Below, in pieces: positions 662 through 29,535 of a stretch of DNA of 30,223 nt (position 1 is the stretch's first letter; every line of letters starts with the position of its first letter). The notes beneath the pieces were generated by a model. The model made no database searches. It was not told where the DNA came from and was given only the letters and a program-made list of their open reading frames with translations. Position numbers and translations under genes: made by a program. Origin of the DNA: a virus (taxonomy: Duplodnaviria; Caudoviricetes); the IMG/VR virus record IMGVR_UViG_3300010362_000074, positions 1 through 30,223 of that record. One strand, 5' to 3'.

Positions 662-1002
662 TTCAGACTCTCCACGTAGGACACAAGCAGCGGAACAGCG
701 AAAACGCCCGATGTCGTAACGTACCAATCGGCAGGCGAGCCCTTACCCACGCGCTTATGCCAGACAATTCCAGTGTGGACGTTGGCGGCAGCGACCATCG
801 CGGGCAGGTCATTGACCCACGCCGACAACGCCAAACGTGAATGGTTTTTCACACTCACCACGAGCGGTAGTCCAGTGATGTCGCCGCTATCGTCCGGCGC
901 TCCAGCGCGCGGACGGTAGAGCAGCTTGTCCCCGAACAGGGGAGCGAGGTAGTTCAATACCTCATGCTCCGCACGGTATCCTTTCTTGCTCGCGTAACTC
1001 AC
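658..1002 (-). CDS. Holliday junction resolvase, PD-(D/E)XK family
   Basis: SKKGYRAEHEV...DDSGDI...VVSVKN pattern. GTG 1002 overlaps the upstream TGA. Confidence 0.8.
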   Translation of the reverse strand: MSYASKKGYRAEHEVLNYLAPLFGDKLLYRPRAGAPDDSGDITGLPLVVSVKNHSRLALSAWVNDLPAMVAAANVHTGIVWHKRVGKGSPADWYVTTSGVFAVPLLVSYVESLK

Positions 1003-1268
1003 GACAGCCACCCTCGATCCGCTACCTGCGTACACAATGGAGCGCGCCGCAGGATAGCGACAGCCTGACGCGCGAGCTTGAGCGTCGTGTGCGCCACGAT
1101 GGGACGTCCGTACTCCGTCTTCAGGAGCAGCACAACGGCCGGCTCGCCATCGTCGGTAGCGTTAGCGAGCAAGCCAACACGCTCGATCTCCGCGTGCTCG
1201 TGCGGCATACCCTCCAGATCCGTCCACGGCGAGCCTTCGAGGTCCGGCCGGATGTCCAATGTAGTCAT
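999..1268 (-). CDS. Hypothetical protein (89 aa, MTTLDIRPDLEG...)
   Basis: ATGA/GTGA overlaps with both neighbours. Confidence 0.7.
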   Translation of the reverse strand: MTTLDIRPDLEGSPWTDLEGMPHEHAEIERVGLLANATDDGEPAVVLLLKTEYGRPIVAHTTLKLARQAVAILRRAPLCTQVADRGWLS

Positions 1269-1504
1269 TCCTGGCTCGCAATCTCCACGAGCGCGACGGC
1301 CGCGATCGTCCGCGCGATCTCGTATCCCCACGACATGTCAAGGTGCGTCCGGATGATGGCTGCAGCGAGAGCCTTGTTGCCTCCGTAATCCTCGAGTATT
1401 TCGGCCGTCTTCGATACGAAGAACGTGAACTCGTCTCGTGCTCGCGCGTAGATTTGATCCATCTGCGCCACTAGATGTGGCGGTGGCGTCGGAACCTTGC
1501 TCAT
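1265..1504 (-). CDS. Hypothetical protein (79 aa, MSKVPTPP...)
   Basis: ATGA overlaps on both sides; GAGGGAG upstream. Confidence 0.7.
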   Translation of the reverse strand: MSKVPTPPPHLVAQMDQIYARARDEFTFFVSKTAEILEDYGGNKALAAAIIRTHLDMSWGYEIARTIAAVALVEIASQE

Positions 1505-1917
1505 TGCTCCCTCGTTTCGCAATTAGTACACAATGGATGGCTGTTAGCTCCGTAGAGCCGGATCCGGCCTCGACACCGGGCGCACGGTCCCGCATCACGT
1601 GGAGGCGCGAGCACGGTGAACCGGTACGGAAAGCCGCCCTTGATCCAATGACCGCGCACAACGAGCGGCTCCAGGGCGTCGCCGTACCCTCCGGGAGCGA
1701 AACGCTCCGGCTCGTACGGATCCACGCGCGCCGGCCGTAGAACGCGGATGAGCGTGGCGAACGCTTCGCCGTACTCCGGACCGTCCGCGTAGGCGTGCTC
1801 CGCGCAATAGCCGCGTGCCGACTGGCGCGGCCGTTTCCAGTACGTCAACTCTCCGCAGCGCGCACACTTTCTCGCGTCTATGCAGAGCGTCAACTCCGTG
1901 AATTTGACTCGGATCAT
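1501..1917 (-). CDS. Cys-rich putative zinc-binding protein (138 aa)
   Basis: CARC...CAEH and CARC...CTNC pairs. ATG 1917 overlaps the primase TGA. Confidence 0.65.
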   Translation of the reverse strand: MIRVKFTELTLCIDARKCARCGELTYWKRPRQSARGYCAEHAYADGPEYGEAFATLIRVLRPARVDPYEPERFAPGGYGDALEPLVVRGHWIKGGFPYRFTVLAPPRDAGPCARCRGRIRLYGANSHPLCTNCETREQ

Positions 1918-3854
1918 GACGCGCCAACGGCATAGGTGTACGGCGAATGCGGTAAGCAGCGGACGGTCCAATGTGGCTTACCGTATCGAGTCACGCCATC
2001 ATCGACGTTCCCGCATATCTCACAGATCAACTCGGCCGCATCGAGCGACTCGTCCCGATCACTGTCTGTAGTGGACTCTCCAGCCTCTTGCCCACTTGCC
2101 CACTCAGGTAGGGCGTCCTTTGTGGGACTCAATTCAGTGGGCAAGTGGGCAAGAGACCACTTCGTCGATGACAGACCGTGATCGCCAACGATCTTCGCTA
2201 GACCGGCATCGGAGCGCGCTCGCCGAAGCGTGTGCTCCGTGAATCCATCGATCTTTCCGGCCTCAACGATCTCCGGCCACGACAGCGGACCATCGCGGAG
2301 AATATCTTGAAGGAATTCGATTTCCATAACGCGAGCGCGACGCTTCGAAGCTTTCTCTTCATCGTCATACGAGCGGTCCGGCTGCGGACCGTCCAATACG
2401 GACTGAGCCGTAAAGTCAGCCGCGCCATGCCAGGAAATGAACGGTATTCCCTCGTTGGTTGTCTCGACGGTGTACCGCAGCGATACCGGTTTGCGAGCGA
2501 GATTCATTTTCACGCATGCGAACACCTTCGATTCCTGGTCAGCCGGATCCGGAGCCACGAGGAAGGTCGCTCGCGCGGCTCCAGTGAATCCAATCGATCC
2601 GCCACCTCGATAGATCGCCTTCGACCCGGTACCGCCCTTGTTAAGATGCCGTACCGCGACAACGGCCGTACCGGTAGCCGCGGCTAGTGTCTTAAGTGGA
2701 TAGAGCGCGCGACGCACGGACGCATCGTTGTGCGAATCGGTCCGCTCCGCGAGGAACGCCATCAACGGATCGAAGACGATCGCGCATGCTCCGATGCGTT
2801 GCGCCAGACGGTAGACGCCCGGCAGTCCACTAAGGAATTCGAACGGCTCGTCAGGCGTCGCACCGTGCGGGACGAGGTACACGTTATCGAGCCGCGCGCC
2901 GGCAACTTCGAGGCGAGGCACGATCGTATCCTCGATATCGTCCTCTGCCGATACGAGGATGACCGGCCACGGACCGACACCGTTACTTCCGTCCGGCATC
3001 GGCGCGCCGGTCGAGAGCCGCGCGGCGAGATCGAGCGTCAAGATGCTCTTACCGTCACCCGGATCACCCTCCAGAATGGACAGCTTGCCGCGCGGAATGT
3101 ACCCATCCCATACCCACGTGACGCGACGCGTCTTCACCGTGCTCGCGACGTACGTTGACTCTTCGTCGCTCTCCGGCAGTGAATCCAGCGCATCGAGGGA
3201 GTAACCGGCATCGAGAAGCTCTGAGACGTCCTTACCGACGCGAGGGACGGTAAGACTAAGGGTCGCCGCGTACGGCCGCGTAGAGACCGCTACAGAGCGC
3301 GCGTGAGCCCGTCCAACCGGATCGTTGTCCGCGATGATGCTCACGTGGCAGTCGCGAAGCTGCTCGCCATAGTGCGCGAGCCACGAGCCGGCTCCGGTGA
3401 CACACGTCGTGGCCACGAGCCCTAGCGAGATCAACCGATCGGCGTCTTTCTCTCCCTCCACGACGTAGACCAGGAGCCCATGCTCACGCGCGTACGCGAT
3501 GGCCGGAAGTTGATACAGGATCCGCGCGGCCGCAACCGGCAACCCTGGCACGCATCGGAACGTCTTCGGTACCCAACGCTCCACTGTGTACCGCAGCGTC
3601 CCTAGCTCATCGCGGTACTCGTAAACCGCTACGACGTGCGGAACGGTCGAGAGATCCGCGAACGTCAAGCCAAGCGCGGCGAGCACGTCACCCGTATCGC
3701 AGTTGGCATGACACTTGACAACGATCCCACCTTCGCGACCGTGGTTAACCATGAGCGAGGAAACACGATCGTCATGCGCCGGACAGCGCGCCGACACTCC
3801 ACTAGGGAGCCTGCGAACGTTGTCCAGACGTAGCACGAGCTCGTCAAGCTCCAC
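1914..3854 (-). CDS. DNA primase-helicase (Zn finger + TOPRIM + RepA/RecA-like AAA helicase)
   Basis: CPAHDD...CHANC zinc finger, VEGEKD and IADND TOPRIM motifs, Walker A GDPGDGKS, Walker B IVFDP, RHLNK. Start moved to GTG 3854 after AAGGGA. Confidence 0.92.
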   Translation of the reverse strand: MELDELVLRLDNVRRLPSGVSARCPAHDDRVSSLMVNHGREGGIVVKCHANCDTGDVLAALGLTFADLSTVPHVVAVYEYRDELGTLRYTVERWVPKTFRCVPGLPVAAARILYQLPAIAYAREHGLLVYVVEGEKDADRLISLGLVATTCVTGAGSWLAHYGEQLRDCHVSIIADNDPVGRAHARSVAVSTRPYAATLSLTVPRVGKDVSELLDAGYSLDALDSLPESDEESTYVASTVKTRRVTWVWDGYIPRGKLSILEGDPGDGKSILTLDLAARLSTGAPMPDGSNGVGPWPVILVSAEDDIEDTIVPRLEVAGARLDNVYLVPHGATPDEPFEFLSGLPGVYRLAQRIGACAIVFDPLMAFLAERTDSHNDASVRRALYPLKTLAAATGTAVVAVRHLNKGGTGSKAIYRGGGSIGFTGAARATFLVAPDPADQESKVFACVKMNLARKPVSLRYTVETTNEGIPFISWHGAADFTAQSVLDGPQPDRSYDDEEKASKRRARVMEIEFLQDILRDGPLSWPEIVEAGKIDGFTEHTLRRARSDAGLAKIVGDHGLSSTKWSLAHLPTELSPTKDALPEWASGQEAGESTTDSDRDESLDAAELICEICGNVDDGVTRYGKPHWTVRCLPHSPYTYAVGAS

Positions 3855-4074
3855 GGTCACCGTCCCTTGTGGCCGCTCGAAAACCGATGTACGAGCCGAG
3901 CAAGCCGAACGCGCCACTAAACGCAGCCGTGAGAATCTGTGTGGCGTTATCACTCAATCCCGGTCCCTCGCTGAAGATGGCGTCATAGAGGACCGCGAAC
4001 GTAATCATGTTGACCGCTGTAGCGATCCCTACCGCGAGCAGGATCGCAACGAGGTCCTTCCCTTCCCGCTGCAC
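3844..4074 (-). CDS. Two-TM membrane protein (76 aa), holin-like
   Basis: Two hydrophobic segments and a short charged C-terminus; GAAGGG upstream. Confidence 0.6.
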   Translation of the reverse strand: MQREGKDLVAILLAVGIATAVNMITFAVLYDAIFSEGPGLSDNATQILTAAFSGAFGLLGSYIGFRAATRDGDRGA

Positions 4075-4086
4075 CGTCGCGCCCTT

Positions 4087-4260
4087 CTAGTCGAGGTAGC
4101 GATGTTGATCACTCGTTAGGTGATTCTCTAGCTGGACCGTCGCCACGCCAATCGACGTCACCGGCTCGCCCTGCCAGCTACACGTGACACAGACAGCCTC
4201 GAATGTCTGCTCACGAACGTTGAACCGTACGCACCATGAGGTCTCTTCGGTGTCATGCAT
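4087..4260 (-). CDS. 57-aa putative C2H2-type zinc-finger protein MHDTEETSWCVRFNVREQTFEAVCVTCSWQGEPVTSIGVATVQLENHLTSDQHRYLD
   Basis: Translated by hand. It fills the gap between flanking genes and has CVTC...HLTSDQH ligands. Confidence 0.65.
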   Translation of the reverse strand: MHDTEETSWCVRFNVREQTFEAVCVTCSWQGEPVTSIGVATVQLENHLTSDQHRYLD

Positions 4261-4429
4261 CGGAACCGTCTACGGTGGACGTTCCGCCGGCGGACTGTCC
4301 ACGCTGGACAGTCGTGGGCTCCGGCTCGTACTCCAGCCGGTAGTACACGAAGCAATGCACGAGGTATCCGATAAGGAACGCGGTAACGCTCATCGCACCT
4401 AACAGCACGATCGCGACTGGCCAAGTCAT
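4253..4429 (-). CDS. Small single-TM membrane protein (58 aa, MTWPVAIVLLGAM...)
   Basis: ATGA overlap with the upstream gene; N-terminal hydrophobic helix. Confidence 0.65.
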   Translation of the reverse strand: MTWPVAIVLLGAMSVTAFLIGYLVHCFVYYRLEYEPEPTTVQRGQSAGGTSTVDGSDA

Positions 4430-5490
4430 AACAGGCTCACTTCCTTGCCGTACCGAACGATGGTTTCTCCACAGTGGACGGGGTTCGCCTCCGCACCGAT
4501 GCACACGCGGTCAGCCTTATCCGCAGCGAGCAACATCGCACCGTTGCCGAGGAACGGATCCGCCACAACGTCGCCGCTCGATGTGAAGAGCTTGAGTAGC
4601 TTCGTAGCGAGCGAGCGCGGATCGACGGTCACGGTTAGAACGTCGTGCGCCTCGTGATAGAGCCCACCGTCTTCCTTCGCGAAGAGATAGACCGGAATCC
4701 AATCGTTGAAGCCAAGCGCTCCCGGTGCGGAGCCGTTGGTAACGCACGCGGCGAGCGTCCACCGGTACGGCATTTTGACGACTCGTGCGAAGTCCACAAG
4801 GGACGGAACGCCTAGCCGTACGGCAACGACCGGTGCGACGTCGACGAGGTAATCGTGAGCCCACACGAGTCCGTCTAGGGCAGACACGTCCGCGAAGACA
4901 AAGAGCGGCTCTGCCTGCCGTACCTTCTCGATAAAGGGCGCGTCCGTACTCTCGCCACAGTAGAGCCGATGGTCTCCGAGCTTCCACCACTGTCCACGTT
5001 GGACGTCCGGTGCGTCCGGACGCTCGCTCGTCGGAGCCGTCTCGCGCAATCTGGCCTGTTGACAGAGCTTGAAAACCCCACGCACGGACACACGAGCCTG
5101 AGCAATCGCGCGTTCCACAATGGACGGATAGGCCGCTATGGTGCGTGCTTCGTAATCGCGCTCGCGCTGAAGGTGGGTCATCGGCTCGCTTGGATTTGTC
5201 ATATCGTGAGCGGCCGTTGACGTTATGACCTCCGGTGGCCGTCCCAGCGTCGCCGGACCCAACAGCACGCCAATGCGCTGCACAACGAGCACGCGCGTGC
5301 GGTCAGCCTCGATCACATCCTCGTTGAGTTGCTTGAGCCGATGACGCGCACCAACCAACACGGACTCAAGCTCGCGGAGCCGATCGATGTCCTCGATCTC
5401 TTCGAGCTTGCGACGGACTTCGATCGCAAACCGACGGATCTCGAAAGCCTTAGCCTCGACAGGATCGATCGAAGCGATTTCCGTTGACAT
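4426..5490 (-). CDS. N6A/N4C DNA methyltransferase homologue with a degenerate catalytic motif and a helical N-terminal domain
   Basis: GQWWKLGDHRLYCGEST and SAM-binding VADPFLGNG...CIGAE are kept, but the DPPY position reads FVFADVSA. Confidence 0.75.
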   Translation of the reverse strand: MSTEIASIDPVEAKAFEIRRFAIEVRRKLEEIEDIDRLRELESVLVGARHRLKQLNEDVIEADRTRVLVVQRIGVLLGPATLGRPPEVITSTAAHDMTNPSEPMTHLQRERDYEARTIAAYPSIVERAIAQARVSVRGVFKLCQQARLRETAPTSERPDAPDVQRGQWWKLGDHRLYCGESTDAPFIEKVRQAEPLFVFADVSALDGLVWAHDYLVDVAPVVAVRLGVPSLVDFARVVKMPYRWTLAACVTNGSAPGALGFNDWIPVYLFAKEDGGLYHEAHDVLTVTVDPRSLATKLLKLFTSSGDVVADPFLGNGAMLLAADKADRVCIGAEANPVHCGETIVRYGKEVSLL

Positions 5491-6243
5491 TTAGAACCCT
5501 GCCTCCTCCGGCGTCGCTGGAGGTACGCCGGTACCACCGCCATACGCGGAGCCCGGAAGGTGTGGCGGAGCCGTCTGAGACGGTCCCTGCGGCGCGTTCG
5601 GTGGCACCGGAGGGTTAGACCCTGGAGCCGGAGCCGGAGGCGCGTACGGAGGCTCTGAGGCCGGCGCTGGATAGGGCGGGACCTGACCGTACGTCGGTTG
5701 CGGAATGTTCGCGGACGTCGGTGGCGCACCGTACTGAGGCTGCGGAGGCGGCGCGTAAGCGTTCGCCCCTGACCCGTACTGGACTGGTGCGTACGCAACC
5801 GGAGCCGGTGGAGCTTGCAACGCTCGCGCTTGCTCCGCGAAGTTATGGACCGCTTCGCGTGCGAGTTGCTCGATACGACCTGGATTCATCGAAACCCAGT
5901 AATTCGCCACTTGCTCGTCATACGCGGAGGCCGCTTCGAACGAGACCGACTTGCCGCGCGCCACGATGCGAGCGAGCGTGTCCGCTCCCGGTGGCATCGC
6001 ACGGACCTGCGACAGTAGCGCCGCGTTGAAAATCATCACATCGTCAAACACGTCGTTCTGCGACCGTCCGGTTAGGACAACCACCGTTCCGCGTGCGGCT
6101 GCCTTCTCACCGAAACTCGTTTTGATCGTCTCGTGAACGCCTCCGTGGATCCAGATAAGAGTCTCGCCGGCGTACTCTGCCCAACCAAACGTCTTCACTG
6201 GCTCCGGCCGGTTCCATGCTCGTTGTGGTGACTGCGGTTGCAT
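5491..6243 (-). CDS. Putative ssDNA-binding protein with a Pro-rich linker
   Basis: Folded N-terminal domain, long P/A/Y low-complexity tail ending EEAGF (acidic-Phe tip), located in the replication module. GAGGAG RBS. Confidence 0.5.
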   Translation of the reverse strand: MQPQSPQRAWNRPEPVKTFGWAEYAGETLIWIHGGVHETIKTSFGEKAAARGTVVVLTGRSQNDVFDDVMIFNAALLSQVRAMPPGADTLARIVARGKSVSFEAASAYDEQVANYWVSMNPGRIEQLAREAVHNFAEQARALQAPPAPVAYAPVQYGSGANAYAPPPQPQYGAPPTSANIPQPTYGQVPPYPAPASEPPYAPPAPAPGSNPPVPPNAPQGPSQTAPPHLPGSAYGGGTGVPPATPEEAGF

Positions 6244-6261
6244 CTACTCCTCTTCTCCGTC

Positions 6262-7212
6262 CTAAAAGGACTTGTCCAACATCCGATAGGCGAGTCCCGC
6301 TTGCGGCGGACACACGCCGTTACCTAACGCCGTGATAGCTCGCGTCCAATTGAGCTTCGCGGTTACGTGTCCACTAGGGACACACATGAGCCATTCAACA
6401 AACTCCGGCGACACTCGTTGCCGTACGCCGTTGGCATCGAGCACGGTCGGCCGTGGCGGTGGTCCATAGATACTCGTCTGCCTCATGACAGCCTCGTAAA
6501 ACTGCTGCCAGTACAACCGAGGCCGCGTGCGATAACACTGTGGACGGTCGAGCATTGGCAACGAGGTAATCGCTCCGCTCAACGGACGTCCCTCCGCGCG
6601 ACGTGACCAATACTCCGGCGTCCCTCCGCGCAACCGTCCATCGCTCGCCGTTGGCGTCGGGAACATGTACATCGATGGCACCGGGCACGGTGGCTCCGGT
6701 ACAATGTGGACAGTTGCCGCGGCACGCTTAACGCGCTTCGCGAGCATGAAGACACGTTGCCGATGATGGGCCGCGCCGACGTTGCACGCTCCCAACGTAA
6801 CCGCGTGAACGGCGTAGCCAAGCTCCACAATGGATCCGGCCACCGCACGGAAGAGCGAGCCTCCGTCATAGCTCACGAGCCCGGCCACGTTCTCCAGGAA
6901 GACGAAGCGCGGCCGCATGATAAGCACGGCGCGGAGCACGTGCGGCCAGAGCCAGCGAGGATCATCCGTGCCGAGCTTCGCTCCCGCCGCGCTCACTGGC
7001 TGGCACGGCCAACCGGCCGTAAGCATCGAGACACGTGGCGCGGAGGCGAAGTCAGCTTCGCGAATGTCCCCTAGGTTTGGCTCGCTCGCGATCGCATCGA
7101 AAACCGGATCCACTTCGGCGCGCCACACCGTACGCACATCGAGTCCGATGTGGACTAGCCCTAGCTCTAAGCCGCCATAGCCGGAGCACAACGCGCCCAC
7201 GCGGATCGTCAT
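6262..7212 (-). CDS. DNA cytosine-5 methyltransferase
   Basis: Motif I LCSGYGG, IV GWPCQ, VI ENV, VIII RQRVF, X LGNGV. ATG 7212 overlaps the upstream TGA. Confidence 0.93.
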   Translation of the reverse strand: MTIRVGALCSGYGGLELGLVHIGLDVRTVWRAEVDPVFDAIASEPNLGDIREADFASAPRVSMLTAGWPCQPVSAAGAKLGTDDPRWLWPHVLRAVLIMRPRFVFLENVAGLVSYDGGSLFRAVAGSIVELGYAVHAVTLGACNVGAAHHRQRVFMLAKRVKRAAATVHIVPEPPCPVPSMYMFPTPTASDGRLRGGTPEYWSRRAEGRPLSGAITSLPMLDRPQCYRTRPRLYWQQFYEAVMRQTSIYGPPPRPTVLDANGVRQRVSPEFVEWLMCVPSGHVTAKLNWTRAITALGNGVCPPQAGLAYRMLDKSF

Positions 7213-7952
7213 GACTCGACTCCGGGACACGCTTGTGTGAGATCGCTCGATCCTTTGCGGTAGTGCGCGCACCATGGGCACAAGTGATCCGGGGTGGCGC
7301 GGACGTCTTCGGGGCGTTTACCGGCGAGCCGCTTGATACGGTCAATCGCACGGTCCGCAATGGACGGATCGAACGGAGCCCGCCAAACCCAAAGGTCGTT
7401 TAGCTCTCCGTCGATAGGTAGGAACGCAAGCGCGACGTGCCGGACGTCTTCGCCGGCTGCCACGAGCGCGGCTCCGTAGAGTTGAGTTTGAACTACATAG
7501 GATGCCGTCGGTCCCTCGTGCCGGAGCCGCTTGAGCTTCGCCAGCGTGGTTGTCTTCCAATCGATTACCGTCTTCGTGTATCTATCGAAGAGATCGACTG
7601 TGCCTGGCATGCCCCGATAGTCCAGGTCTCGCTCCACGAGGAAGCGTCCCGACGTCGCGTTGAGCCGATAGAAGATCGAAGCGAGCGCGGAGTGAACGCC
7701 TACGCCAACGAGTGAACGCAACGGATCGCGAAGGTTAACCATCGGCACGGCCGCGAGTTTGTAGGCAATGCGCCTATCGCATAGATGACCGGCCTCCGAT
7801 GAGCCGAGCGTGGTTTGGAGAGCACGCGGCATCGTGACGGCTCCGAGCGAGACGAGGGAGCGCAACTCACGCTCCATCGCGTACGCCTCCGGATCGAACG
7901 GTGCCCCGCGGGATTCGTCCACAGGGGACGGTTGTCGCCATTCACGCGACAC
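7209..7952 (-). CDS. Cas4-like / RecB-family exonuclease
   Basis: GTVD...VIDWKT...QTQLYG nuclease motifs. One N-terminal Cys (HLCDRR) plus CPWC...C gives the Fe-S pattern. Start moved to GTG 7952 after AAGGGA. Confidence 0.88.
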   Translation of the reverse strand: MSREWRQPSPVDESRGAPFDPEAYAMERELRSLVSLGAVTMPRALQTTLGSSEAGHLCDRRIAYKLAAVPMVNLRDPLRSLVGVGVHSALASIFYRLNATSGRFLVERDLDYRGMPGTVDLFDRYTKTVIDWKTTTLAKLKRLRHEGPTASYVVQTQLYGAALVAAGEDVRHVALAFLPIDGELNDLWVWRAPFDPSIADRAIDRIKRLAGKRPEDVRATPDHLCPWCAHYRKGSSDLTQACPGVES

Positions 7953-8265
7953 GATGACGTCCCTTGAGTATGAATTTCTCCACGGTGGACAGTCGCGTAA
8001 AGCGGCGCGCCGTTGCCGGCTCTTCCTCCCTAAGCCGCTTAACGTCGATGGTCTCGCGGTCAACCTTCGAGACCTGACACACCGGCTTGCCGTCTACGGT
8101 GCCGACACTCGCGTCATGCACTGCCAGAAACGCCACGAGCGCATCGCGAGCCTTGTTGCGCCGCTCCTTAGCGGCATCCTCTGCGTTGCACGCGTCCACA
8201 TACTCATCGAGCGTTTGCCGCATTTCATGGGTTAGCGGGAAGCCCGCTTCGGATTCCTCAGACAC
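7942..8265 (-). CDS. Coiled-coil protein resembling the C-terminal domain of YqaJ-type exonucleases (107 aa)
   Basis: Helical N-half then GTVDGKPV...RETIDVKRLREEEP...RF; adjacent to the exonuclease; first gene of the leftward operon. Confidence 0.6.
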   Translation of the reverse strand: MSEESEAGFPLTHEMRQTLDEYVDACNAEDAAKERRNKARDALVAFLAVHDASVGTVDGKPVCQVSKVDRETIDVKRLREEEPATARRFTRLSTVEKFILKGRHRVA

Positions 8266-8403
8266 ATCGACTCCCAGCGTTCTTACAGTTCATAGATGGC
8301 TCACGAAGACTTGACTAACGGACACGAAGTTGTCGTGTTGCGTACTTTGAAAACTGACCCTTGCGGCTTAACCTCAGAGGTGTATGCGGCTTAGAGGCGA
8401 GCC
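8266..8403. promoter_or_regulatory. Divergent control region between the early operon and the repressor
   Basis: AT-richer non-coding gap between divergent genes, with imperfect inverted repeat GACACGA-agttg-TCGTGTT at 8321-8339. Confidence 0.5.
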
Positions 8404-8781
8404 GTGCGGGATTGGAGAGCCGTGACCCATGCGCGTCAAGTCAGGTACGCGAACACTCCTGCGTTACGGACGTTGATTTCTGAACGCATGAGCGAGCTTC
8501 GCTATGATCCACGCGACGTAGCGGGTAAGAGCGATGGTCGGCTGTCGCATCAGACGGTGTACGCCCTGATAGCGCGCCGGACGTCCACTGTGTACCTTCG
8601 CACCCTCGAAGGTCTCTCGATCGCTCTCCGCGTAGACATAGACGAGTTGCTCGAATGCGTTCGCGACTATGCACCGTGGACGATGCCAACACGCTTCGAT
8701 GTCACGCCGCCACGAGTAAGGGCGGAGATCGAGCGCACGATAGGCGCGATGCTCGAAGCTATCGGCATCCTGGAGACCTAG
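8404..8781 (+). CDS. XRE-family HTH repressor, probable immunity repressor
   Basis: LRTLISERM...RDVAGKSDGRLSHQTVYALI...RTLEGLSIALRVDIDEL HTH pattern; opposite orientation to the lytic genes. Alternative GTG start at 8422. Confidence 0.75.
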   Translation: MRDWRAVTHARQVRYANTPALRTLISERMSELRYDPRDVAGKSDGRLSHQTVYALIARRTSTVYLRTLEGLSIALRVDIDELLECVRDYAPWTMPTRFDVTPPRVRAEIERTIGAMLEAIGILET

Positions 8782-8786
8782 CCACA

Positions 8787-9167: not shown

Positions 9168-9269
9168 TCGTTTAACCTCCCTCGTTGGCTAAGGGAACGA
9201 AGGTTTGCACGAACGGTTTCGGCGCACAAGCATGCCAACCGGCGCTTGTCAAGCATCAATACATGATCG

Positions 9270-9309
9270 GTGTCATATCGTGTCATACTTTGGTCAACGT
9301 GAATGACAC
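9270..9309. repeat. GTGTCATA direct repeat (10-bp period) plus inverted ATGACAC
   Basis: Copies at 9270-9277 and 9280-9287 and the inverted copy at 9303-9309, in the 370-bp intergenic gap. Confidence 0.6.
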
Positions 9310-16923: not shown

Positions 16924-16926
16924 GGC

Positions 16927-21506: not shown

Positions 21507-21527
21507 AATGGACACTCCCTAGTTTGA

Positions 21528-21570
21528 GCGAGGCGTCTAACGGGCTTCGCCAAGCCGCTAGACGCCCCGC
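21528..21570 (-). terminator. Long stem-loop after the major tail gene (terminator or mRNA stabiliser)
   Basis: 16-bp stem GCGGGGCGUCUAGCGG / CCGUUAGACGCCUCGC with two G-U pairs; no clear U-tract. Confidence 0.55.
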
Positions 21571-21592
21571 GGCTACTGTCCCCAGTGGACTG

Positions 21593-22273
21593 TTACGGCG
21601 CGGCTCCTGCGACCCATGCGGACGCATCCCAATGAGCCTGCGAAGAGTCGCCCAATACGACGTACTGTCCCGTTGTCCACGCGGTTGCCTGCCCTAGGGG
21701 CCCTAGAGCTTGCAGGGCGGCGAGATTGGCTGGAGGCGTAGCGTTCGCCGGTTGGAAGGTGCCTGGCGTACCGGGAGTGACGCCGGTTGGCGTAACCGAT
21801 GGAACGATCTCGTTACCGTCCTCATCGATCATCGTGTACTTACCCTTAAGTGGCAGGTTCGCGGTAAAGGTTGCCCACGCTCCACTTGCGACGTTCCCAA
21901 CGGTGTCGGGAGGTCCGATGGTTACGGTTCCCTTGAAACCGCGCCCTACCGGGTTCTCATCGCGATCAACCTTCGGGTAGTACGTGAACTCTGCTTCCTC
22001 GCCATCGTGCTCCAGTAGGAACATCTGGAAAGATTCAGCGCTCTCGACGTCCTGAACGCCGGTCACCGTGAGGTTCCACGTGCGCTCCGCGTTTTCGGAG
22101 TACGAGCCCGTTGGACACAATGTGGACAGAGCCACGACGTCGCCACCGGCTGACGTGAGGCCAGCCTGCGTTACGGAACATTGAAACTCGTGGACGATTC
22201 CGTCTTTGCCCTTGATCGTGAGCTTGATCCATCGGACAAAGAGCGGCTTGACGTCCATCACTGGAGCGGTCAT
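21593..22273 (-). CDS. Major tail protein with a small C-terminal accessory domain
   Basis: FQCSVT...WNLTVTGVQD...FTYYP...FKGTVTI tube pattern; C-terminal AWTTGQYVVLGD..AHWDASAWVAG. Confidence 0.85.
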   Translation of the reverse strand: MTAPVMDVKPLFVRWIKLTIKGKDGIVHEFQCSVTQAGLTSAGGDVVALSTLCPTGSYSENAERTWNLTVTGVQDVESAESFQMFLLEHDGEEAEFTYYPKVDRDENPVGRGFKGTVTIGPPDTVGNVASGAWATFTANLPLKGKYTMIDEDGNEIVPSVTPTGVTPGTPGTFQPANATPPANLAALQALGPLGQATAWTTGQYVVLGDSSQAHWDASAWVAGAAP

Positions 22274-22285
22274 GTATTGATTCCC

Positions 22286-22639
22286 CTAACAGTTAAGTTG
22301 TCCGATGGCACACGTCACGACGTACGCCGGATAGTTCAGTTCCGCGATCACACGGACGGCCGGCTCAACGTGCGTAACAACGATGTCCGGACCGTTGAGC
22401 GCGCGGATCACTTCCTCCGTCACGGCGTCAAGCTCGTCTTGACTGTCCATATCGGAGATTCGCCGGCCGATCACGAACACCGGACACGCGTAGGCGTATA
22501 ACTGCGTGTCGAGATCGATCGTCGGCCGGCCAACCACTACACACGGAACGTTGGTCACGTCATCGGGATAGAAGCCGTACACTTCCCAATCCACTGTGGA
22601 CAGGTAAGCTACGAGTTGCTTCCGCGCCGCGCGGATCAT
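22286..22639 (-). CDS. Tail terminator-like protein (117 aa)
   Basis: VY...PD....PCVVVG pattern; position between connector and major tail gene. Confidence 0.6.
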   Translation of the reverse strand: MIRAARKQLVAYLSTVDWEVYGFYPDDVTNVPCVVVGRPTIDLDTQLYAYACPVFVIGRRISDMDSQDELDAVTEEVIRALNGPDIVVTHVEPAVRVIAELNYPAYVVTCAIGQLNC

Positions 22640-22956
22640 GCGATACCCAAAACGCGATAGGTGTGGATTTTTTGCTCCAGCAGCGACACGAGGTCAGGAT
22701 CACGAGCGATGATGCGGATTGCGCCCATGTCGTCCCAACCGGCGACACCCTCCGGCGACAACCGTCGTTTGTAGAGCCTTGACGCGAGCAAGAGCACGGC
22801 TTGGACCACTTCAGGGTCATTGATCATCGTGGGGTACACGCGGTCGTAAACCCAATTGCCTGCGGCTTCGAGGCAAATCGATAAGGTGCCATCGTCCTTT
22901 GTGGCTTGTGCGCCAATCATCTTGCGCAGTGAATCCAAGCTCGCGCGCTCGCTCAC
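22636..22956 (-). CDS. Head-to-tail adaptor (gp6-like, 106 aa)
   Basis: SLDSLRKMIG..DD..L...LEAA...V.QAVLLLASRLYKRR.SPEG pattern. Start GTG 22956 after GAGG. Confidence 0.8.
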   Translation of the reverse strand: MSERASLDSLRKMIGAQATKDDGTLSICLEAAGNWVYDRVYPTMINDPEVVQAVLLLASRLYKRRLSPEGVAGWDDMGAIRIIARDPDLVSLLEQKIHTYRVLGIA

Positions 22957-22970
22957 GGTGTTACCTCGCT

Positions 22971-24170
22971 CTACGGAGCAACGTGAATCGCACCGTCGGC
23001 AGCCGGACGGTAGAGACCGACGTAACCGGCGTACGAAACCTGCGTACCGAGGACACTCGGCTCGCCAACGGAAAGCTGGCCAACGATCTGCTCGTACATT
23101 TCGAGGCACAGTCCATTGAGGACCCAGAACGTCGCGTCCGTGATCCCTGGCGTAACGACCATCCGGAGACCGGCCGCGTTGCCCGCGAAGCTCGTTGCGT
23201 TCGGCGCTCCGAGGAAGGGGAGCAACGGACGTCCACTTAGGTCAGTCAGACCGCCGAGGCGCGCCCAACCGAGCGGTCCCGCAGCGAAAAGCGTCGGAAG
23301 TGAACCGGTAGCCATATAGACCTTCGCCGCAGCGTTGTAGATAGCCTGGAGCACAACGTCTCCAGTCGCATCCGCAGCGAGCGTCTCTTTACCGGTGGAC
23401 TTCGCCATTTCCGCGATTGCCGCACGCTCCGTCGCTGCGGAGTACCGTGCGGCAAGCTGATTGACGATACTGTCCATTGTGGCCACGTTCCAGTCCGTGA
23501 CCTGCCGCGCCACGTTCACGTACCCGCCGAGCGTCACCAGGGCGACATCCTCAGACGTGATAGTGAACGGCAACGATACAAGCTCGTCCTTTTGGTTGGC
23601 CTGCTCCGCAACGCCGGTCTGGAAATTCGGATCGTTCAGCCGTGGACGCCGGAACGTCGGTCCACTAGGGACACCGTTCGGTCCGAGCGCGTTCACGAGC
23701 GGCCGCGAGGAATTGATGAAGTCAATTACCGGACCGACGATCGCGTTGGGGAACTGTCCGGCGAATTCACCGGTAGTGATATGCGCAACGGCGCGGTCGT
23801 ACCGCGTGAGCCGATCGGTAGCCTCTTCGCGCTCGTGACGCTGACCGATGCGCGAAACGAAGATGTCACGCATGTACGCGCCAACGGAGCGGTACTCCGG
23901 AGCCGTACGCGCGGAACCAGAGCCCGAACCGGTGGCCGCGCCACCGATCTTCGCGAGTCGATCCTGAGCTTCCTGCGAAAGCTCCACGTCGATGCTCAGC
24001 ACGTCAAGCTGCGTATCGATCGCCTTGATACGTTCCTTCGAGCGAGTAATCAACTCAAGCTCGTTTGTGGACAGGTCGCGGCTCTGCTCTGCCGCGTCTG
24101 CGGTTAGCTTCTCGATGAATTCGAGCTTGCCCTTCCGCTCACCCGTCAGCTTCTCCAGCATTGGATCCAC
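22971..24170 (-). CDS. Major capsid protein, HK97 fold, with N-terminal scaffolding (delta) domain
   Basis: Coiled-coil N-terminal ~120 aa, then VAEQANQKDEL...TLGGYVNVARQ; protease gene upstream. Confidence 0.9.
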   Translation of the reverse strand: MDPMLEKLTGERKGKLEFIEKLTADAAEQSRDLSTNELELITRSKERIKAIDTQLDVLSIDVELSQEAQDRLAKIGGAATGSGSGSARTAPEYRSVGAYMRDIFVSRIGQRHEREEATDRLTRYDRAVAHITTGEFAGQFPNAIVGPVIDFINSSRPLVNALGPNGVPSGPTFRRPRLNDPNFQTGVAEQANQKDELVSLPFTITSEDVALVTLGGYVNVARQVTDWNVATMDSIVNQLAARYSAATERAAIAEMAKSTGKETLAADATGDVVLQAIYNAAAKVYMATGSLPTLFAAGPLGWARLGGLTDLSGRPLLPFLGAPNATSFAGNAAGLRMVVTPGITDATFWVLNGLCLEMYEQIVGQLSVGEPSVLGTQVSYAGYVGLYRPAADGAIHVAP

Positions 24171-24348
24171 TTTGGACAGACCTTCCGGGAGATTACGAGA
24201 ACGTGCATTGACTTACGTCTCGCTCCGGAGGCTGACGATGGGATCGAACCGCTTAGCGATCTCTGTCCACATCGGATGTCCGACGCTGCCTGACTTACTA
24301 GGCGCGGAGGGAGCTTGCCTTTAACAGGTATAGATCCCTCCGCAGACA

Positions 24349-24388
24349 GAAACGCTAGACACGGATCGAGCTTCGTGTCTAGCGTTTC
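24349..24388. terminator. Perfect 15-bp hairpin in the capsid upstream region
   Basis: GAAACGCTAGACACG-10 nt-CGTGTCTAGCGTTTC; on the minus strand the stem ends TTTC and continues TGTCT. Confidence 0.7.
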
Positions 24389-24472
24389 CCGCGGCGACTA
24401 TCCAAAGTGGATGACATTTAGGCGACGGAGCCGGTTCGAAACAGACCAGAAAGCCTCCGGCTCCGCCACGTC

Positions 24473-25630
24473 CTAGAAGTGGGTAATCACGCGGACGAAT
24501 CCATCTCCGCCCTTACCACCGGCACCGGAGGCAAAGCCGTTGGTCGATGCGCCCCCACCGCCGCCACCACCACCGGCAAAACCGTCTCCACCGTTGCCAC
24601 CGGTGCCACCGGTTCCCGCACCACCACCAGAACCGCCGTACCCCGGAAGCATCGCGGTTGCCGGAAACGCTTGCACCGGGGTCGCTCCGTTGCCACCTGT
24701 AACGCCTCCAGCGCCACCGGCCGTGACGCCGGGGTAGTTACCTAGCTCGAAGCGCGCTAGGCCGGCTCCGCCAGCCTGAGGGGCGTTTGCGGCGCTAATG
24801 CCGCCACCGCCACCGCCACCGGTCGAGGCAAGCTGATTGGCCGTGCCTCCGTTGGCTCCCGCCGCGCTTCCGTTGGATCCGGCTCCGCCACCGTTGTTCC
24901 ACTGAATCTGCGTCAGAGCCGCACCACCGGCCGTAGCGGTTCCACCGTTGCCTTGACCACCGCCCCATGGTCGATATTCATTGTTGTTGAATCCTGAAAA
25001 CGTCCCGGCAACGCCAGCGGCTCCGTCCGTGTCGTCCGTCGTACGAGCCGCTCCGCCAATGCCTCCAGCGCCGACCGTGAGCGGAACACTCGCGGGCAGG
25101 TCTTCGGCCGCGTACCAAACATTGATAACGTTGGCTCCGGCTCCACCACCACCGCCACCCCGGATTACTCCAGCGGCTCCGCGCCGGCCGGATCCGCCAC
25201 CGCCTCCACCGGACGTCACCAGGACGTTAACGAGCCGCGCTCCCGCAGGCTTATTCCACGTGTAGTTACCAGGGATCGAATAGCTGTCCACTTGCGACGC
25301 TCGTGGGCCCGGTGTGTACAGCTTGCCGTCCGCACCTAAGCGTGAGTAGTTACCGGCATCGGCACTAACGGCCGTCGGTCCGGCCGGACCTTGCGCTCCC
25401 GTTGTCCCTTGTGGACCGGCGTTGCCCTGCGGACCCTGCGGGCCGATATCACCCTGCGGACCGATCGGACCGTCCGCGCCAGTCGCTCCAGTCGGACCAG
25501 GGACACCCTGGATCCCTTGTGGACCTTCCGGCCCCTCCGGTCCGACCGGTCCCGGAATCCCTCCAGCCGGCACGCCTACCGTTACCACGCCTTCGTCCAC
25601 AAGGGTCAGTCGATCGTTGCTCCCGTTCAT
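24473..25630 (-). CDS. Collagen-repeat + glycine-rich fibre protein (385 aa)
   Basis: (GXY)n segment, then [22 protein letters not shown]...[11 protein letters not shown] Gly-rich domain. ATG 25630 overlaps the upstream TGA. Confidence 0.85.
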
Positions 25631-26133
25631 AGCATGGGCTCCAATACGGTCAACGTACCTTCGAGCATCCGGAAGATTCCTAGCTCCGATGTGGACACGT
25701 ACATGTGCCACGGCCACGCGCCCATGTACTTATCGCCCATGTCTTGAGCATCCTCGCTACTCAACGCCAGGAGGATCGTATCGTCCTCAATGGACGTTGG
25801 CAGCGTCGCGAGCGCATCGCCAAAGCTCGCGAGAGCCTCAACCGTCTCCGGCGTCGCTTTCTCGGCCGGCTGCATCTTTTCCTCAGAGAACACACGAAGG
25901 TGCGGATCGTCCCATAGACCCTGACCGAATACGATGTCCGTCCACAATCGACCGTCGACGCCGATCGTGTTTCGTACCTCTGCGATCCGCTGCGGAAGCC
26001 CGTCGAGGTATACACGATCGTCAACAGTGACGTTCATAGCCTCCACGAGCGAGGGAGCCGGACGCCACAACACGAACGCGCGATGTAGTTCGCCGTGCGG
26101 CTCTACCACGAGGTCATAGCGCGCGGCTCTCAT
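25627..26133 (-). CDS. Putative fibre adaptor protein (168 aa)
   Basis: RYDLVVE N-terminus and W.MYV......[12 protein letters not shown]-terminus recall BppU-like adaptor domains; coupled to the fibre gene. Confidence 0.5.
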
Positions 26134-26753
26134 TGCGCGGCCTCGAATGCTCGCCGCTCCTCCGGCGTCATACGGAGGAGTCTGAGGTCCGCGCGTACCG
26201 CATCGAGGTTGGGAGTACCGGCCGGTGCTTCCGGTGCCTCTACGGCCGTTTGACGGCTCCGCAGAGCCAACACACGCGCTCCCGCGTACTGTGCTTCCGG
26301 CACCAGGGCGACATGCTCCACGTAAACGCGAGCGCGCTCGATCACACCGTCGTTAGCGCGGCGAGACTCCAGCGCGTAGAAAGCGAGGGAGAGCCCGTTG
26401 TCAGATTCCTCCACAAGCTCGCGCGTCTTTTCAGCCGTGGAGGGATAGAGCCTAAAGGATGCGTACGCTCCGTCCGAACGTTCCTCGATCACGGATCCAT
26501 AGCCGAGGATGTTCGGGAAACCGTCCACATGGGAGTATTGCAACTTCACCTTGTGCCAACGAGCATCCGCGCCACGAAGCGAACCGAGGACGAAGCGCTC
26601 ACGATCCTCGCGTCCCCTCTCATCGTCCCAATACTCAACCGTCTCTCCATAAGGGACAACGCGGCCGAACAGAGTCCGGCGCGGACCGCGAGAGCTTGAC
26701 TCTTCGCGGATCTCCAGCGGAACGCTGAAGTGTCGTACATGCAAAGTGTCCAC
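26130..26753 (-). CDS. HK97-family prohead protease
   Basis: RTLFGRVVPYG...ERF..GS...L.YSH...GLSLAF...HVALV..AQY.GA.V pattern. Confidence 0.88.
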   Translation of the reverse strand: MDTLHVRHFSVPLEIREESSSRGPRRTLFGRVVPYGETVEYWDDERGREDRERFVLGSLRGADARWHKVKLQYSHVDGFPNILGYGSVIEERSDGAYASFRLYPSTAEKTRELVEESDNGLSLAFYALESRRANDGVIERARVYVEHVALVPEAQYAGARVLALRSRQTAVEAPEAPAGTPNLDAVRADLRLLRMTPEERRAFEAAQ

Positions 26754-28129
26754 TATAGACCTCCGTCCGTAGTTTGCGCGAGGATCGCGGCCGAATCGCT
26801 CGCCGCTTGAATAGGTGGAAGGTTCTCGATAGCTCGCGCCTCGTCCACTGTGAGCACACCAGACTCAATCATCGTCTTGTATGCGTTAGCGCGTCCCTCG
26901 ATGGTCGGCCGGACAAGAGACTCCGAATCGTGGCGTACCCACTGTCCACGAGGGAGAGCCCAACCGCTTAGCGCTTGCATCATGTTGAATGACATCGCGC
27001 GGAGCGTGGCTCGCCAGAGGAAATCGAAGGTTCCCTCTACGGTTGTGTACGTCAACCCATCGGCCATTGGCAGTCCGACGAACCATAGTGGAACGCCGAA
27101 CACGGAAGCGATACGAGCCTCGTCAAACGTACGGAGATCGAGGAGCCCGATGTCCGATGGCTTAAGATTGAGCGGCGTATACGTCAACCCTCCACTAAGG
27201 ACGGCCGGAAGCACGCCACGACTCAACGCGGCCTCAGCCCACGAACGTTTGAGATCCGTCGCTTGATCCTTCGTGAGCTTCGTCGCGGACTGGAGTACGG
27301 CCGTAGGAATGCCGTTGCTGACCGCAAGCTCCGTGCCGTACCGCTCCAGCGCGTCCGCGCTCGCTAGGTTGCGTGCGGCCGCTTCGAGCGGTCCAACACC
27401 GTGCGCGAGACCTGGCCACGTCTGATAGCGAACATGAAGAATCTCCGCGCGTGGAATCTCGCCAAACTCCGGGAGCGTGTACGTCGGGAGCCCGAACGAG
27501 TTTTCGTCCACTTGCACCATGTCAGGGTTGAGGACAACCATGCGTGCCACTGTGTTGTCCGCGTACCGCGCCGTTGCGACAACGAACGTCTCGCCCCGCA
27601 TGAGCAGCGAGTTAACGAAACACTTGGTAAAGTCCACAATGGACGTATAGAGCTCTGGCTCCGGGTTCTCCGTCCACGGTGTTGCCGGTATCGGCTCCGA
27701 ATCTCTCGTTTGCAGAATCTTCATTGTGGACAGCGTTCGCGAGATTAGATCGATACACGCGAACACCGTGGAGATACGCCCCTCCAGCAGCGGGCCACCG
27801 AAACCGAATCGACCCCACCACATACCCGTCTTGTCGAAGAACGGTGGCTCCCAATCCGTTGGCCAACCGGCCCAACGTGTCCCATGTGGATAGCCAAGCT
27901 CGTCCGGCAGCTTGTTACCGTCGCCACCGATAGGGAAGTCACCAGGGCGACCCACTTCGACCACAGTGGACGGAGGCCGCGGCGCACCGACAAACACGCG
28001 CGGACCAACGCCCCACGTATAGCCACCACCGGGCAGGCGTTGCCCTACCCCGGTGTCACTGTAGACAATGGACGCAGGCAACGTATTGATGTCAACCGTG
28101 GATCCCTTCGCCCGCGTACTTCTACGCAC
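26753..28129 (-). CDS. Portal protein, HK97 family
   Basis: VFACIDLIS, LLMRGETF, EILHVR, GVGPL, IASVFGVP, LTVDEARAIENLPP motifs. Start moved to GTG 28129 after GGAG. Confidence 0.93.
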   Translation of the reverse strand: MRRSTRAKGSTVDINTLPASIVYSDTGVGQRLPGGGYTWGVGPRVFVGAPRPPSTVVEVGRPGDFPIGGDGNKLPDELGYPHGTRWAGWPTDWEPPFFDKTGMWWGRFGFGGPLLEGRISTVFACIDLISRTLSTMKILQTRDSEPIPATPWTENPEPELYTSIVDFTKCFVNSLLMRGETFVVATARYADNTVARMVVLNPDMVQVDENSFGLPTYTLPEFGEIPRAEILHVRYQTWPGLAHGVGPLEAAARNLASADALERYGTELAVSNGIPTAVLQSATKLTKDQATDLKRSWAEAALSRGVLPAVLSGGLTYTPLNLKPSDIGLLDLRTFDEARIASVFGVPLWFVGLPMADGLTYTTVEGTFDFLWRATLRAMSFNMMQALSGWALPRGQWVRHDSESLVRPTIEGRANAYKTMIESGVLTVDEARAIENLPPIQAASDSAAILAQTTDGGL

Positions 28130-28143
28130 CGTCTCAACTCCAA

Positions 28144-29535
28144 TCAGTAGATGGCAACGGATCCCTCGTTGTGTTCCAAGGCATAGAGCGCGCACGATGC
28201 CGCAATGAGCGCGGTTGGCGGAGTCGCCGTACGTCGGTCCCAAACCCAACCACCGGTGAGTTGTCGCGCGATCGCGGATACACAGTCACCAATGAGCGCC
28301 GGCGAACGTCCTATGTGGATAGCTCCCTCCGTGACCCGTTGCACGAACGCGGCGCACGCGGCGGGATATTGACCGTACTTAAGCGGCATGCCGGCAACGT
28401 CATGCTCACGGTCCGCGCGCTCCATGAGGTCAGTGATCCCTCCACGAGCGTCGTACGCCACCGGATCCGCACCGTACGAGGAAGTGAGCCAGCCAAGCCG
28501 CTCCGGGAGCCAACCGGCTCCAGGACGCGTTTCGACCAACGTCACTACCGGCAAGCCATCGTCAGCGATGAACGCGGCCGCGATAGCCGCTCCGGTGCGT
28601 CCCTCGTTGCCAGCGACATCGACGCCCCAACCGATGCGCGCTCCGCGCTCCGGCCGTGGATCGTCTACGGCTAGGTTGTTAATGTCCTCTTCGGACAGTA
28701 CGGCTTCCACGGCTGACTCGCTCCACACGCCGAGCCGCTCACGTTGGAACGACTTGACGGACATCGATTCAAGCTCGCGCTGGATACTGTGCTCCGTGAG
28801 CCGGTACCCGTAACCCGGATTGACGCGCGCCCATAGTCGTGGATCCCGATGGTCCTCCGTCGCGTCCGCGTGCCATTCCCAATAGGCGAAGCGCGGAGAG
28901 ACCTTCGAGTGTCCACGTTGGCGGAGCTTGAGCAGGACGAGAGCCTCCCATGTGGACGCTGAAGACAGGTAATAGACCTGCGGGTTTGGCCGCGCTGACA
29001 GTGACGGGATAGTGGAGGCTGTCACTTCCTCGCTCAAAGCGAACGCTTCGTCAAACAGCAAACAGTCCGGCGAGAAACCACGACCGGACGTGCGCGTACG
29101 AGCGATCAATCGAAAGCGAGCACCATTCGTAAACTCCACTTGCTCGCCACCGGAGCGCACGCGGATGCGGGACACGAACGGGGATAGGACGTCGGACTCA
29201 CACACGTCGCGCATCGTTCGCCAAACCTCTTGTGCCGTGCGGTACTCGTGCGCGGAGTAAAGGATCAACTTTTCGCCATAGACGAGGATGCCCGCCAGGG
29301 CGCGAGCGATGATCAAGAAAGACTTGCCATTTTGACGTGGGACGATGGCCACGTTTTCGAACGCGGACCACCGTCCATTGTGGTCAGTACGCGCGGACTC
29401 TGAGAGGATCTCCGCTTGCCATGGATCAAGGTCCATACCGATGGCGCGAGCGAGCTTGACCCCGGAGTCATCCGGCGTACCGTCCGGCAAGCTCCGCGTT
29501 GTCGCTTCCTGCGTACCGTAAAGATCAACCGGCAT
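28144..29535 (-). CDS. terL: Terminase large subunit
   Basis: LDPWQ, Walker A VPRQNGKS, Walker B LLFDEA, nuclease GVDV. Confidence 0.95.
   Translation of the reverse strand: MPVDLYGTQEATTRSLPDGTPDDSGVKLARAIGMDLDPWQAEILSESARTDHNGRWSAFENVAIVPRQNGKSFLIIARALAGILVYGEKLILYSAHEYRTAQEVWRTMRDVCESDVLSPFVSRIRVRSGGEQVEFTNGARFRLIARTRTSGRGFSPDCLLFDEAFALSEEVTASTIPSLSARPNPQVYYLSSASTWEALVLLKLRQRGHSKVSPRFAYWEWHADATEDHRDPRLWARVNPGYGYRLTEHSIQRELESMSVKSFQRERLGVWSESAVEAVLSEEDINNLAVDDPRPERGARIGWGVDVAGNEGRTGAAIAAAFIADDGLPVVTLVETRPGAGWLPERLGWLTSSYGADPVAYDARGGITDLMERADREHDVAGMPLKYGQYPAACAAFVQRVTEGAIHIGRSPALIGDCVSAIARQLTGGWVWDRRTATPPTALIAASCALYALEHNEGSVAIY

Follow-up and report, generated by a model that had tools for sequence, protein, structure and literature searches.

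The sites matS, NBS, SBS and ram (bound by MatP, Noc, SlmA and RacA, respectively) are short palindromes, often located within genes, which are read by host dimers and serve the handling of the chromosome rather than promoter control. In Actinobacteria, the sequence-specific nucleoid-associated protein Gbn (SCO1839) is reported to recognize the site GATCWT (PMC9239103). Cluster O mycobacteriophages carry 17-bp dyad repeats, TGTTCGGNNNCCGAACA, which are reported without an assigned function and as absent from host genomes (PMC4351075), and the stoperators of Cluster A are described as asymmetric 13-mers, oriented with transcription and bound by a monomeric phage repressor (PMC9283540). Here we analyze another dispersed word, a 13-bp dyad originally read as GTCCAC-N-GTGGAC, in the virus record IMGVR_UViG_3300010362_000074 (Duplodnaviria; Caudoviricetes), taken as a whole (30,223 bp; hereafter, the window). 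This dyad word is real, strongly selected and carried at saturation by a set of soil actinophages, and its occurrence in bacterial chromosomes points to a reader encoded by the host.

A first, sequence-only reading of the window reported 12 copies with one mismatch, about 35 with two and none without mismatches. Our scan returned 12, 36 and 0, and all 43 coordinates that had been listed (12 one-mismatch and 31 two-mismatch copies) proved exact. The excess is also as large as had been supposed from a rough expectation of about two copies: 48 copies with at most two mismatches versus 2.05 ± 1.40 (maximum 6) in 100 dinucleotide shuffles. The arrangement of the two halves is fixed, since the exact form GTCC-Nd-GGAC occurs 28 times at d = 5 (1.6 expected) and 0-3 times at every other d between 0 and 15. 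The half-sites are coupled and do not occur independently, exact GGAC being found at +9 after 56 of the 436 GTCC (background, 0.7%). The conserved core is TCC-N5-GGA with a W center, which corrects the description as GTCCAC-N-GTGGAC, and the palindromic matrix gives GTCCAc(A/T)gTGGAC, its flanks being weak. An outward extension of the palindrome, held to be frequent, is a minor feature (CT/AG on the left in 7 of 48 copies, on the right in 8 and on both sides in 2). With this matrix, the window shows 102 degenerate 13-bp dyads scoring at least 10 bits, unoriented and dispersed over 119..30131, compared with 4-10 when the spacer is lengthened, so that the true density is ~1 per 300 bp rather than the one per 600 bp first proposed.

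The top-scoring site, GTCCACAATGGAC (27632..27644; 18.6 of 19.1 bits), lies inside the portal gene, where it encodes the peptide SIVD. Other strong sites are CTCCACAGTGGAC (4467..4479), near the 3' end of a degenerate methyltransferase gene, and ATCCACTGTGGAC (22589..22601), inside a gene of the tail-completion region (22286-22639). Close pairs are rare. One (4268..4313) is formed by sites at 4268 and 4297, 29 bp apart, the second of which falls within a 9-bp-arm inverted repeat, the perfect GACTGTCCA-cgc-TGGACAGTC repeat present, as reported, at 4293-4313; another (sites 9333 and 9354; 9333..9366) is non-coding and precedes an Xis-like gene.

The word is shared by the related phages G002-G007 (capsid protein 56-62% identical), whose whole records contain 45-86 sites versus 0-14 in controls, and it stands at control level in G001 (1 site) and G313 (5 sites); a scan of relatives thus extends it to some of them and not to others. 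Among further records, matrix sites number 41 in G312, 65 in G314, 21 in G315, 18 in G311, 9 in G310 and 5 in G316, and G797 has 25 versus 1-8 in controls. For most records, unconstrained expectation-maximization on the relatives was drawn away to codon periodicity, and for this reason we used the window matrix together with spacer-shift and synonymous-shuffle controls. Word-positive phages span different virion modules and capsids as well as serine and tyrosine integrases. The capsid or terminase module could be rejected as the cause, because the word occurs alongside other virion genes in G312, G314, G315 and G797 and is missing from G001 and L002, which are nested in the clade. In the capsid tree (17 rows), the negative G001 falls within a 100/98 clade with the positive G003 and G007, and the negative L002 within a 100/99 clade. 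The word was probably ancestral in this capsid clade and lost at least twice, and the lineages that lost it probably changed host group. The word is lacking in MooMoo, Corndog and Squash and in a Streptomyces plasmid that encodes a distant primase-helicase, and a pattern scan of viral contigs found no enriched locus among the 80 analyzed (of 120 returned).

Palindromes of other kinds were seen in the same surroundings. Squash (L486) has about ten intergenic GATCAACC-N-GGTTGATC palindromes, and in the Streptomyces plasmid NZ_CP058979.1 (L485) two ACTGCA-TGCAGT clusters flank parA in a parS-like manner. Unrelated proviruses bearing ParA-ParB (G799 = L478, L479; kin L464, L471, L475, L284, L287, L324, L353) contain a few near-perfect copies of GTGTCCA-N3-TGGACAC, which has the same core as the dyad, is sparse and perfect, occurs once at a parA-parB junction and resembles parS or an operator.

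Most copies had been placed in open reading frames (ORFs) and in different frames, and indeed 86 of the 102 window sites are coding, with all three frames represented (26, 14 and 41 for the genes scanned, genes making up 90% of the DNA). The enrichment survives synonymous codon shuffling: 83 in-gene sites versus 9.1 ± 2.9 (maximum 19) in 40 shuffles. Permissive places, at which the peptide allows a strong site, are filled in 40 of 50 cases in the window, 24 of 29 in G005 and 43 of 53 in G007, compared with 1 of 16 in G001. Codon alignments of 14 genes show the site-making codons in the positive genomes and not in G001, which has no site in 7,488 orthologous nucleotides versus 1.5-4.0 per kb in the positives. 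One portal column carries a site in all seven positive genomes and lacks it in G001. Such sharing is infrequent overall (111 of 414 pairwise comparisons between genomes, 27%, match in the same column), and therefore the sites turn over, density being kept rather than position.

The matrix built over 566 sites from nine records is mirror-symmetric. No left-right bias of orientation was found over these sites (genomes being oriented by their structural genes), nor any bias relative to gene direction. Compensatory pairing between the arms is absent among 407 TCC-N5-GGA occurrences, where complementary combinations number 180, 130 and 97 versus 179, 143 and 128 expected. The symmetric, unoriented matrix and the lack of arm covariation argue for recognition of double-stranded DNA by a symmetric dimer and against hairpins; a single-strand hairpin signal (of the ssi or REP type) was ruled out by arm complementarity at or below independence. 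Site pairs less than 60 bp apart are depleted (11 versus 54 expected in seven genomes), with normal numbers from ~80 bp on; the depletion of short gaps holds in eight of nine genomes, and no helical phasing of the sites was seen. Sites are ~2-fold enriched between -30 and +10 of gene starts (52 versus 27). Most phage sites are sub-maximal: the perfect W-centered site is absent from seven phage genomes, which contain 40 one-mismatch and 170 two-mismatch forms.

The sequence-only reading inferred a dimeric protein bound along the whole genome and named four binders encoded by the phage itself. The first part agrees with the symmetry, the fixed spacing, the absence of covariation and the short-range exclusion, while the four binders found no support. 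The XRE repressor, the HigA-like helix-turn-helix (HTH) protein, the Xis-like HTH protein and the degenerate methyltransferase were found in 1, 0, 2 and 1 of the six motif-rich relatives, respectively, and a C5 methyltransferase in one of the six. None of the four is present in G004, which is complete (direct terminal repeats) and in which no Pfam HTH was found among the 23 proteins scanned of 43 called. Silencing by one of these proteins in the manner of stoperators would suit a temperate genome with an integrase and an XRE gene (8404..8781, + strand) that, as had been pointed out, itself contains two sites (8583 and 8669), as well as the enrichment near gene starts. Against it stand the rarity of the candidates, the single identical specificity across different immunity regions, the lack of orientation bias, the presence of the same word in bacterial chromosomes, and the distribution within the window, the control and integration region (8300..12600) having the lowest density, with 7 sites (1.6/kb versus 3.6-3.7/kb elsewhere). 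We regard such silencing as highly improbable. The large serine integrase (11039..12535, + strand), present in all strongly positive members of the clade, was also rejected as the binder: it fitted eight records, yet it was not found in the complete, motif-positive G312, which has a tyrosine integrase.

The best phage-encoded candidate, although disfavored, is the primase-helicase (1914..3848, - strand; Toprim-like and AAA_25), which could bind the sites for loading or priming. Its gene, along with those for a RusA-like protein and an exonuclease (the latter also found in the negative G001 and G313), is one of the only three common to the complete positives G004, G312 and G314. Some excess of the word accompanies it in all 11 of its carriers, and G313, with another primase, shows no excess. 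On the other hand, the G310 copy is 53% identical and G310 has just 9 sites versus 3.9, the C-terminal helical region does not track site density, and distant carriers are without the word. No close full-length plasmid homolog was ranked (best 34%), NZ_CP045481.1 included, even though that replicon is enriched (see below). The word in bacterial chromosomes would also be left unexplained, and overall this candidate appears quite unlikely.

A scan of host chromosomes, suggested along with the original description, revealed the same word at the same spacing, chromosome-wide, in part of one actinomycete order. The path to it led through the bin G465. In this bin, enrichment is confined to a minority of the small contigs, which carry ordinary cell genes (20 versus 7 in 62.6 kb, the selecting hits removed); the bin as a whole is not enriched (13 sites versus ~14 in 40 unselected contigs totaling 179 kb). 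CcsB from one site-bearing contig has its best match, among 231 genomes, in G518 (61%) and not in the bin's own family, and the site-bearing small contigs (L490, L496, L504-L523) appear to be foreign to the bin. The order of G518 was therefore examined, and the positive group was found there. At least 20 forward hits of TCCACWNTGGA occur in 42 of its 121 genomes (up to 592; reversed control at most 11); G808 is left out of our claims, which leaves 41 positives, palindromic hits count on both strands, and other unpublished genomes enter only the denominators of the broad surveys. In five positive genomes, the hits per strand are 592/604, 429/461, 428/427, 377/385 and 138/136, falling to 2/6, 4/3, 5/5, 0/2 and 2/4 when the spacer is lengthened by 3. 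The replicon NZ_CP045481.1 (L581; pAmyYIM10 of Amycolatopsis sp. YIM 10) has 28 sites versus 3-7 in controls; it is filed as a plasmid, its annotation includes terminase, portal, capsid and a serine recombinase, and judging by these genes it is probably an excised phage. The motif-rich actinomycete group appears to include Amycolatopsis, and from this replicon, among other grounds, we infer that the positive order is the one holding Pseudonocardiaceae.

Broader surveys, of 301 genomes from the phylum (at most 20 GTCCANNNTGGAC) and of 251 from the class, gave nothing strong. Two outliers, G334 and G492, were rejected as positives, their hits being paired perfect repeats 34 bp apart. These intergenic, REP-like elements consist of two ATCCACWGTGGAT palindromes (G334 C1:175822-175866; G492 C16:226491-226535; L493, L494; also G476), and such pairs occur in several actinomycete genomes.

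A known host regulator might be thought to read the word. GTCCACA resembles the actinomycete DnaA box, a stand-alone 9-mer TTRTCCACA, which occurs 0 times in the window. For NdgR/LtbR, of the IclR family, chromatin immunoprecipitation sequencing is reported to give the operator GTCCAC-N3-GTGGAC, with identical half-sites, at 19 promoter loci (PMC4340878). Its spacing, however, is off by 2 bp (GTCC-N7-GGAC occurs 0 times in the window, versus 28 for GTCC-N5-GGAC), and group 1 of the IclR family is described as requiring a center of 3-4 bases (PMC8222616). Moreover, 121 genomes of another order, with Streptomyces-like sizes, show no real excess of the word (N5/N8 ~0.9-1.5, N5/N11 1.1-1.4), and we consider either regulator a very unlikely reader.

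The word is 3- to 15-fold denser in phages than in hosts (by the strict pattern, ~330 hits per Mb in the window versus 118 in G856). This difference, the presence of the same word in hosts and the sub-maximal strength of most phage sites would be expected of a sponge, in which ~100 sites per replicating copy titrate a host protein off the chromosome and thereby disturb its regulation or organization. Yet a sponge would favor clustered, strong, non-coding sites, and the actual ones are distributed over the genes despite the cost in codons, keep clear of one another within 60 bp and do not include the perfect form, which makes this explanation rather improbable. Another account, to which we give a similarly small chance, is a molecular drive without any coat, in which a host machine preferentially takes up, transfers, recombines or repairs word-bearing DNA, as with DNA uptake sequences (DUS) or HIP1. 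It is in keeping with a degenerate, unoriented word that fills permissive coding positions with turnover and that is found in hosts plus their mobile DNA. It does not agree with the many-fold excess in phages, with the short-range exclusion, which points to a footprint, or with a two-armed site with a free spacer, which suits a dimeric binder.

The binder is most likely encoded by the host because the same word is found chromosome-wide in bacteria of one order; a host-encoded reader of any kind is, in our assessment, very likely. With somewhat less assurance, we favor a sequence-specific homodimer that organizes the nucleoid or chromosome and is recruited by the phages every few hundred bases. 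Such a homodimer would read the two TCC/GGA half-sites on double-stranded DNA, and the candidate binder would be nucleoid-associated. Each bound complex may cover or serve ~60-80 bp, a second, closer site bringing no gain. Selection would then act on density rather than on position, with sites arising wherever the protein sequence allows, and the phage would acquire the host protein as a near-continuous coat. As to the benefit of recruiting this host protein, the foremost possibility, though short of an even chance, is that the phage's DNA would be treated like host chromosome, shielded and organized; shielding is in line with the uniformly covered late genes and with the sparser sites of the control region. 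Silencing of the prophage is a less likely benefit; it gains some weight because four of the six positive relatives (the serine-integrase phages G002, G003, G004 and G007) showed no recognizable gene for a repressor in the stretch from the early operon to the integrase. Segregation with the nucleoid is a more doubtful one still.

Several observations weigh against the recruitment of a host nucleoid protein. The matrix was trained on the window, which renders the window counts partly circular; the spacer-shift controls and the other genomes are free of this circularity, and it is on them and on the shuffles that the proof rests. When the phage matrix was applied to 307 kb from ten positive genomes (selected with this matrix; first places and 20-kb pieces of chromosomes), the excess was modest, with 69 sites (0.22 per kb) versus 14-45 in controls, 48 versus 26 in genes and 44 of the 69 in long ORFs (67% of the DNA). 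By this matrix, host density is low, the window standing ~15-fold above the positive hosts. The perfect site is among the commonest forms in host chromosomes, and its deficit in phages (0 versus ~4 expected by a rough extrapolation) is weak. Overall even spacing is significant in just two of nine genomes. Some excess of the word is seen in every one of the 11 phage records found to carry the primase-helicase, which leaves room for a contribution encoded by the phage. Finally, contigs of two soil sequencing runs that cover the window, and that may be its source, showed neither a host junction nor genome ends, and no prophage of this phage was seen.

A sister lineage nested in the positive clade was counted for a host binder. 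Its fragments L017 (10,058 bp) and L018 (6,610 bp), on a long branch, are without the TCC-N5-GGA word and are rich in GATCWT, which is the consensus of Gbn (133 and 99 copies, 13-15 per kb; GATC 191 and 129; under synonymous shuffling, 79 versus 40 and 61 versus 28). As a tentative extension, one may imagine that an actinomycete group marks its chromosomes with this dyad, whose reader would sort self from foreign DNA or hand DNA to the nucleoid and to spores. The phages would have rewritten most of their permissive codons, to a density above that of the host, in a genome-wide mimicry of chromatin, and would swap to GATCWT upon a change of host.

The window represents a temperate, actinophage-like siphovirus, judging by its genes for terminase, portal, capsid, tail, serine integrase, XRE repressor, exonuclease, two methyltransferase-like proteins, primase-helicase and a RusA-like resolvase. 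Its major capsid protein (22971..24170, - strand) defines the clade (relatives 56-65%), and even its closest relatives in culture are distant, MooMoo and the Cluster O mycobacteriophages reaching 31-36% in this protein. Among plasmids, the integrase has its best matches in Kutzneria, Amycolatopsis and Actinoalloteichus, among others, with an identity of only 27-30%. The product of 5491-6243 matches only unnamed phage clusters in the protein atlas. The slot before the primase-helicase is occupied by the degenerate methyltransferase in the window (4426-5490) and in G005, and by a DUF6551 protein in G003 and G004 (syntenic slot genes in relatives, L168:5214-5789 and L166:9845-10471). DpdA in G003 (L167:3430-4179) and a cluster of PTPS, radical SAM and GTP cyclohydrolase genes in G314 (L267:7134-8910) point to 7-deazaguanine DNA modification in these relatives. 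Several other words are strongly avoided in the window (GGCGCC 0, CTGCAG 1, AAGCTT 2, CTCGAG 2, CCGCGG 10, AGTGC/GCACT 7, CCCAG/CTGGG 7), which suggests escape from host restriction. A terminator-like hairpin with a 13-bp stem (9488-9519, - strand) lies downstream of the membrane-protein gene 9540-9839.

Our literature search (main text of openly licensed papers and preprints) found no description of the dyad word in phages or chromosomes, and the host chromosome word is apparently undescribed. Such a chromosome-wide DNA word points in turn to an abundant, undescribed DNA-binding protein in an actinomycete group in which the apparent inclusion of Amycolatopsis, with a cultured strain, makes the word directly testable. 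Throughout their genes, the phages bend codon choice so as to bear a host mark several times more densely than the host does, a kind of host adaptation beyond codon bias and avoidance of restriction sites. For uncultured soil phages, the word could be used as a signature from which to predict the host, and the binders of further orphan palindromes in phages, the Cluster O repeats among them, may likewise have to be sought in the host.

Mimicry of host-protein sites is known in kind, while this word is apparently a new case of it. Phage phi29 carries host parS and Spo0A boxes. Phages of Alphaproteobacteria are reported to use host CtrA sites at promoters (PMC9437464). The dyad would resemble both cases in that phages evolve sites for a DNA-binding protein of the host, and differs from these few or promoter-clustered sites in having ~100 copies across all genes. 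NdgR and other IclR group 1 operators share the half-site GTCCAC, but have a center of 3-4 bases (15-16 bp in total) where the dyad has 1, and the promoter-bound NdgR loci contrast with genome-wide saturation here. Unlike the stand-alone DnaA box, GTCCACA is accompanied by a partner half, with one mismatch at most, in 25 of 34 cases. The one plasmid palindrome described in PMC4170104 bears no relation to the word.

Among dispersed phage elements, stoperators are likewise 13-bp sites spread over the genome of a temperate actinophage, but the analogy originally drawn with those of L5 fails on symmetry and orientation: the dyad is symmetric, unoriented and shared with bacterial chromosomes. Stoperators change with the phage's own immunity repressor, whereas the word stays the same while the XRE gene was found in only one of six positive relatives. 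The Cluster O repeats are closer, as a dispersed, unoriented dyad within and between genes of phages with a related capsid protein (31-32%). They are, however, invariant (in 49.9 kb, 13 copies are exact and just 5 differ at 1-3 positions), where the dyad is degenerate, and the window contains nothing within 3 mismatches of TGTTCGGNNNCCGAACA itself. They are also described as occurring at ~1 per 2 kb and often intergenic (PMC4351075), compared with ~1 per 300 bp, mostly coding, in the window, and as absent from hosts, whereas the dyad has hundreds of copies in bacterial genomes.

Hyper-abundant words such as DUS, uptake signal sequences (USS) and HIP1 fill permissive coding positions, and the dyad does so genome-wide as well. 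Unlike them, it is a spaced dyad, shows short-range exclusion and is much denser in phages than in hosts. Compared with matS, NBS, SBS and ram, which number tens per chromosome and are regional, it reaches counts of hundreds to thousands on a chromosome, and phages carry it at a far higher density. For Gbn, too, a single host protein is reported to have its sites on the chromosome by the thousands, within and between genes (PMC9239103), although its motif is 6 bp long, and the dyad is a spaced 13-bp site confined to part of one order. With Gbn and the matS type, the dyad word shares many chromosomal sites of fixed architecture (42 of 121 genomes; spacer control 0-6) that are located both in and between genes.

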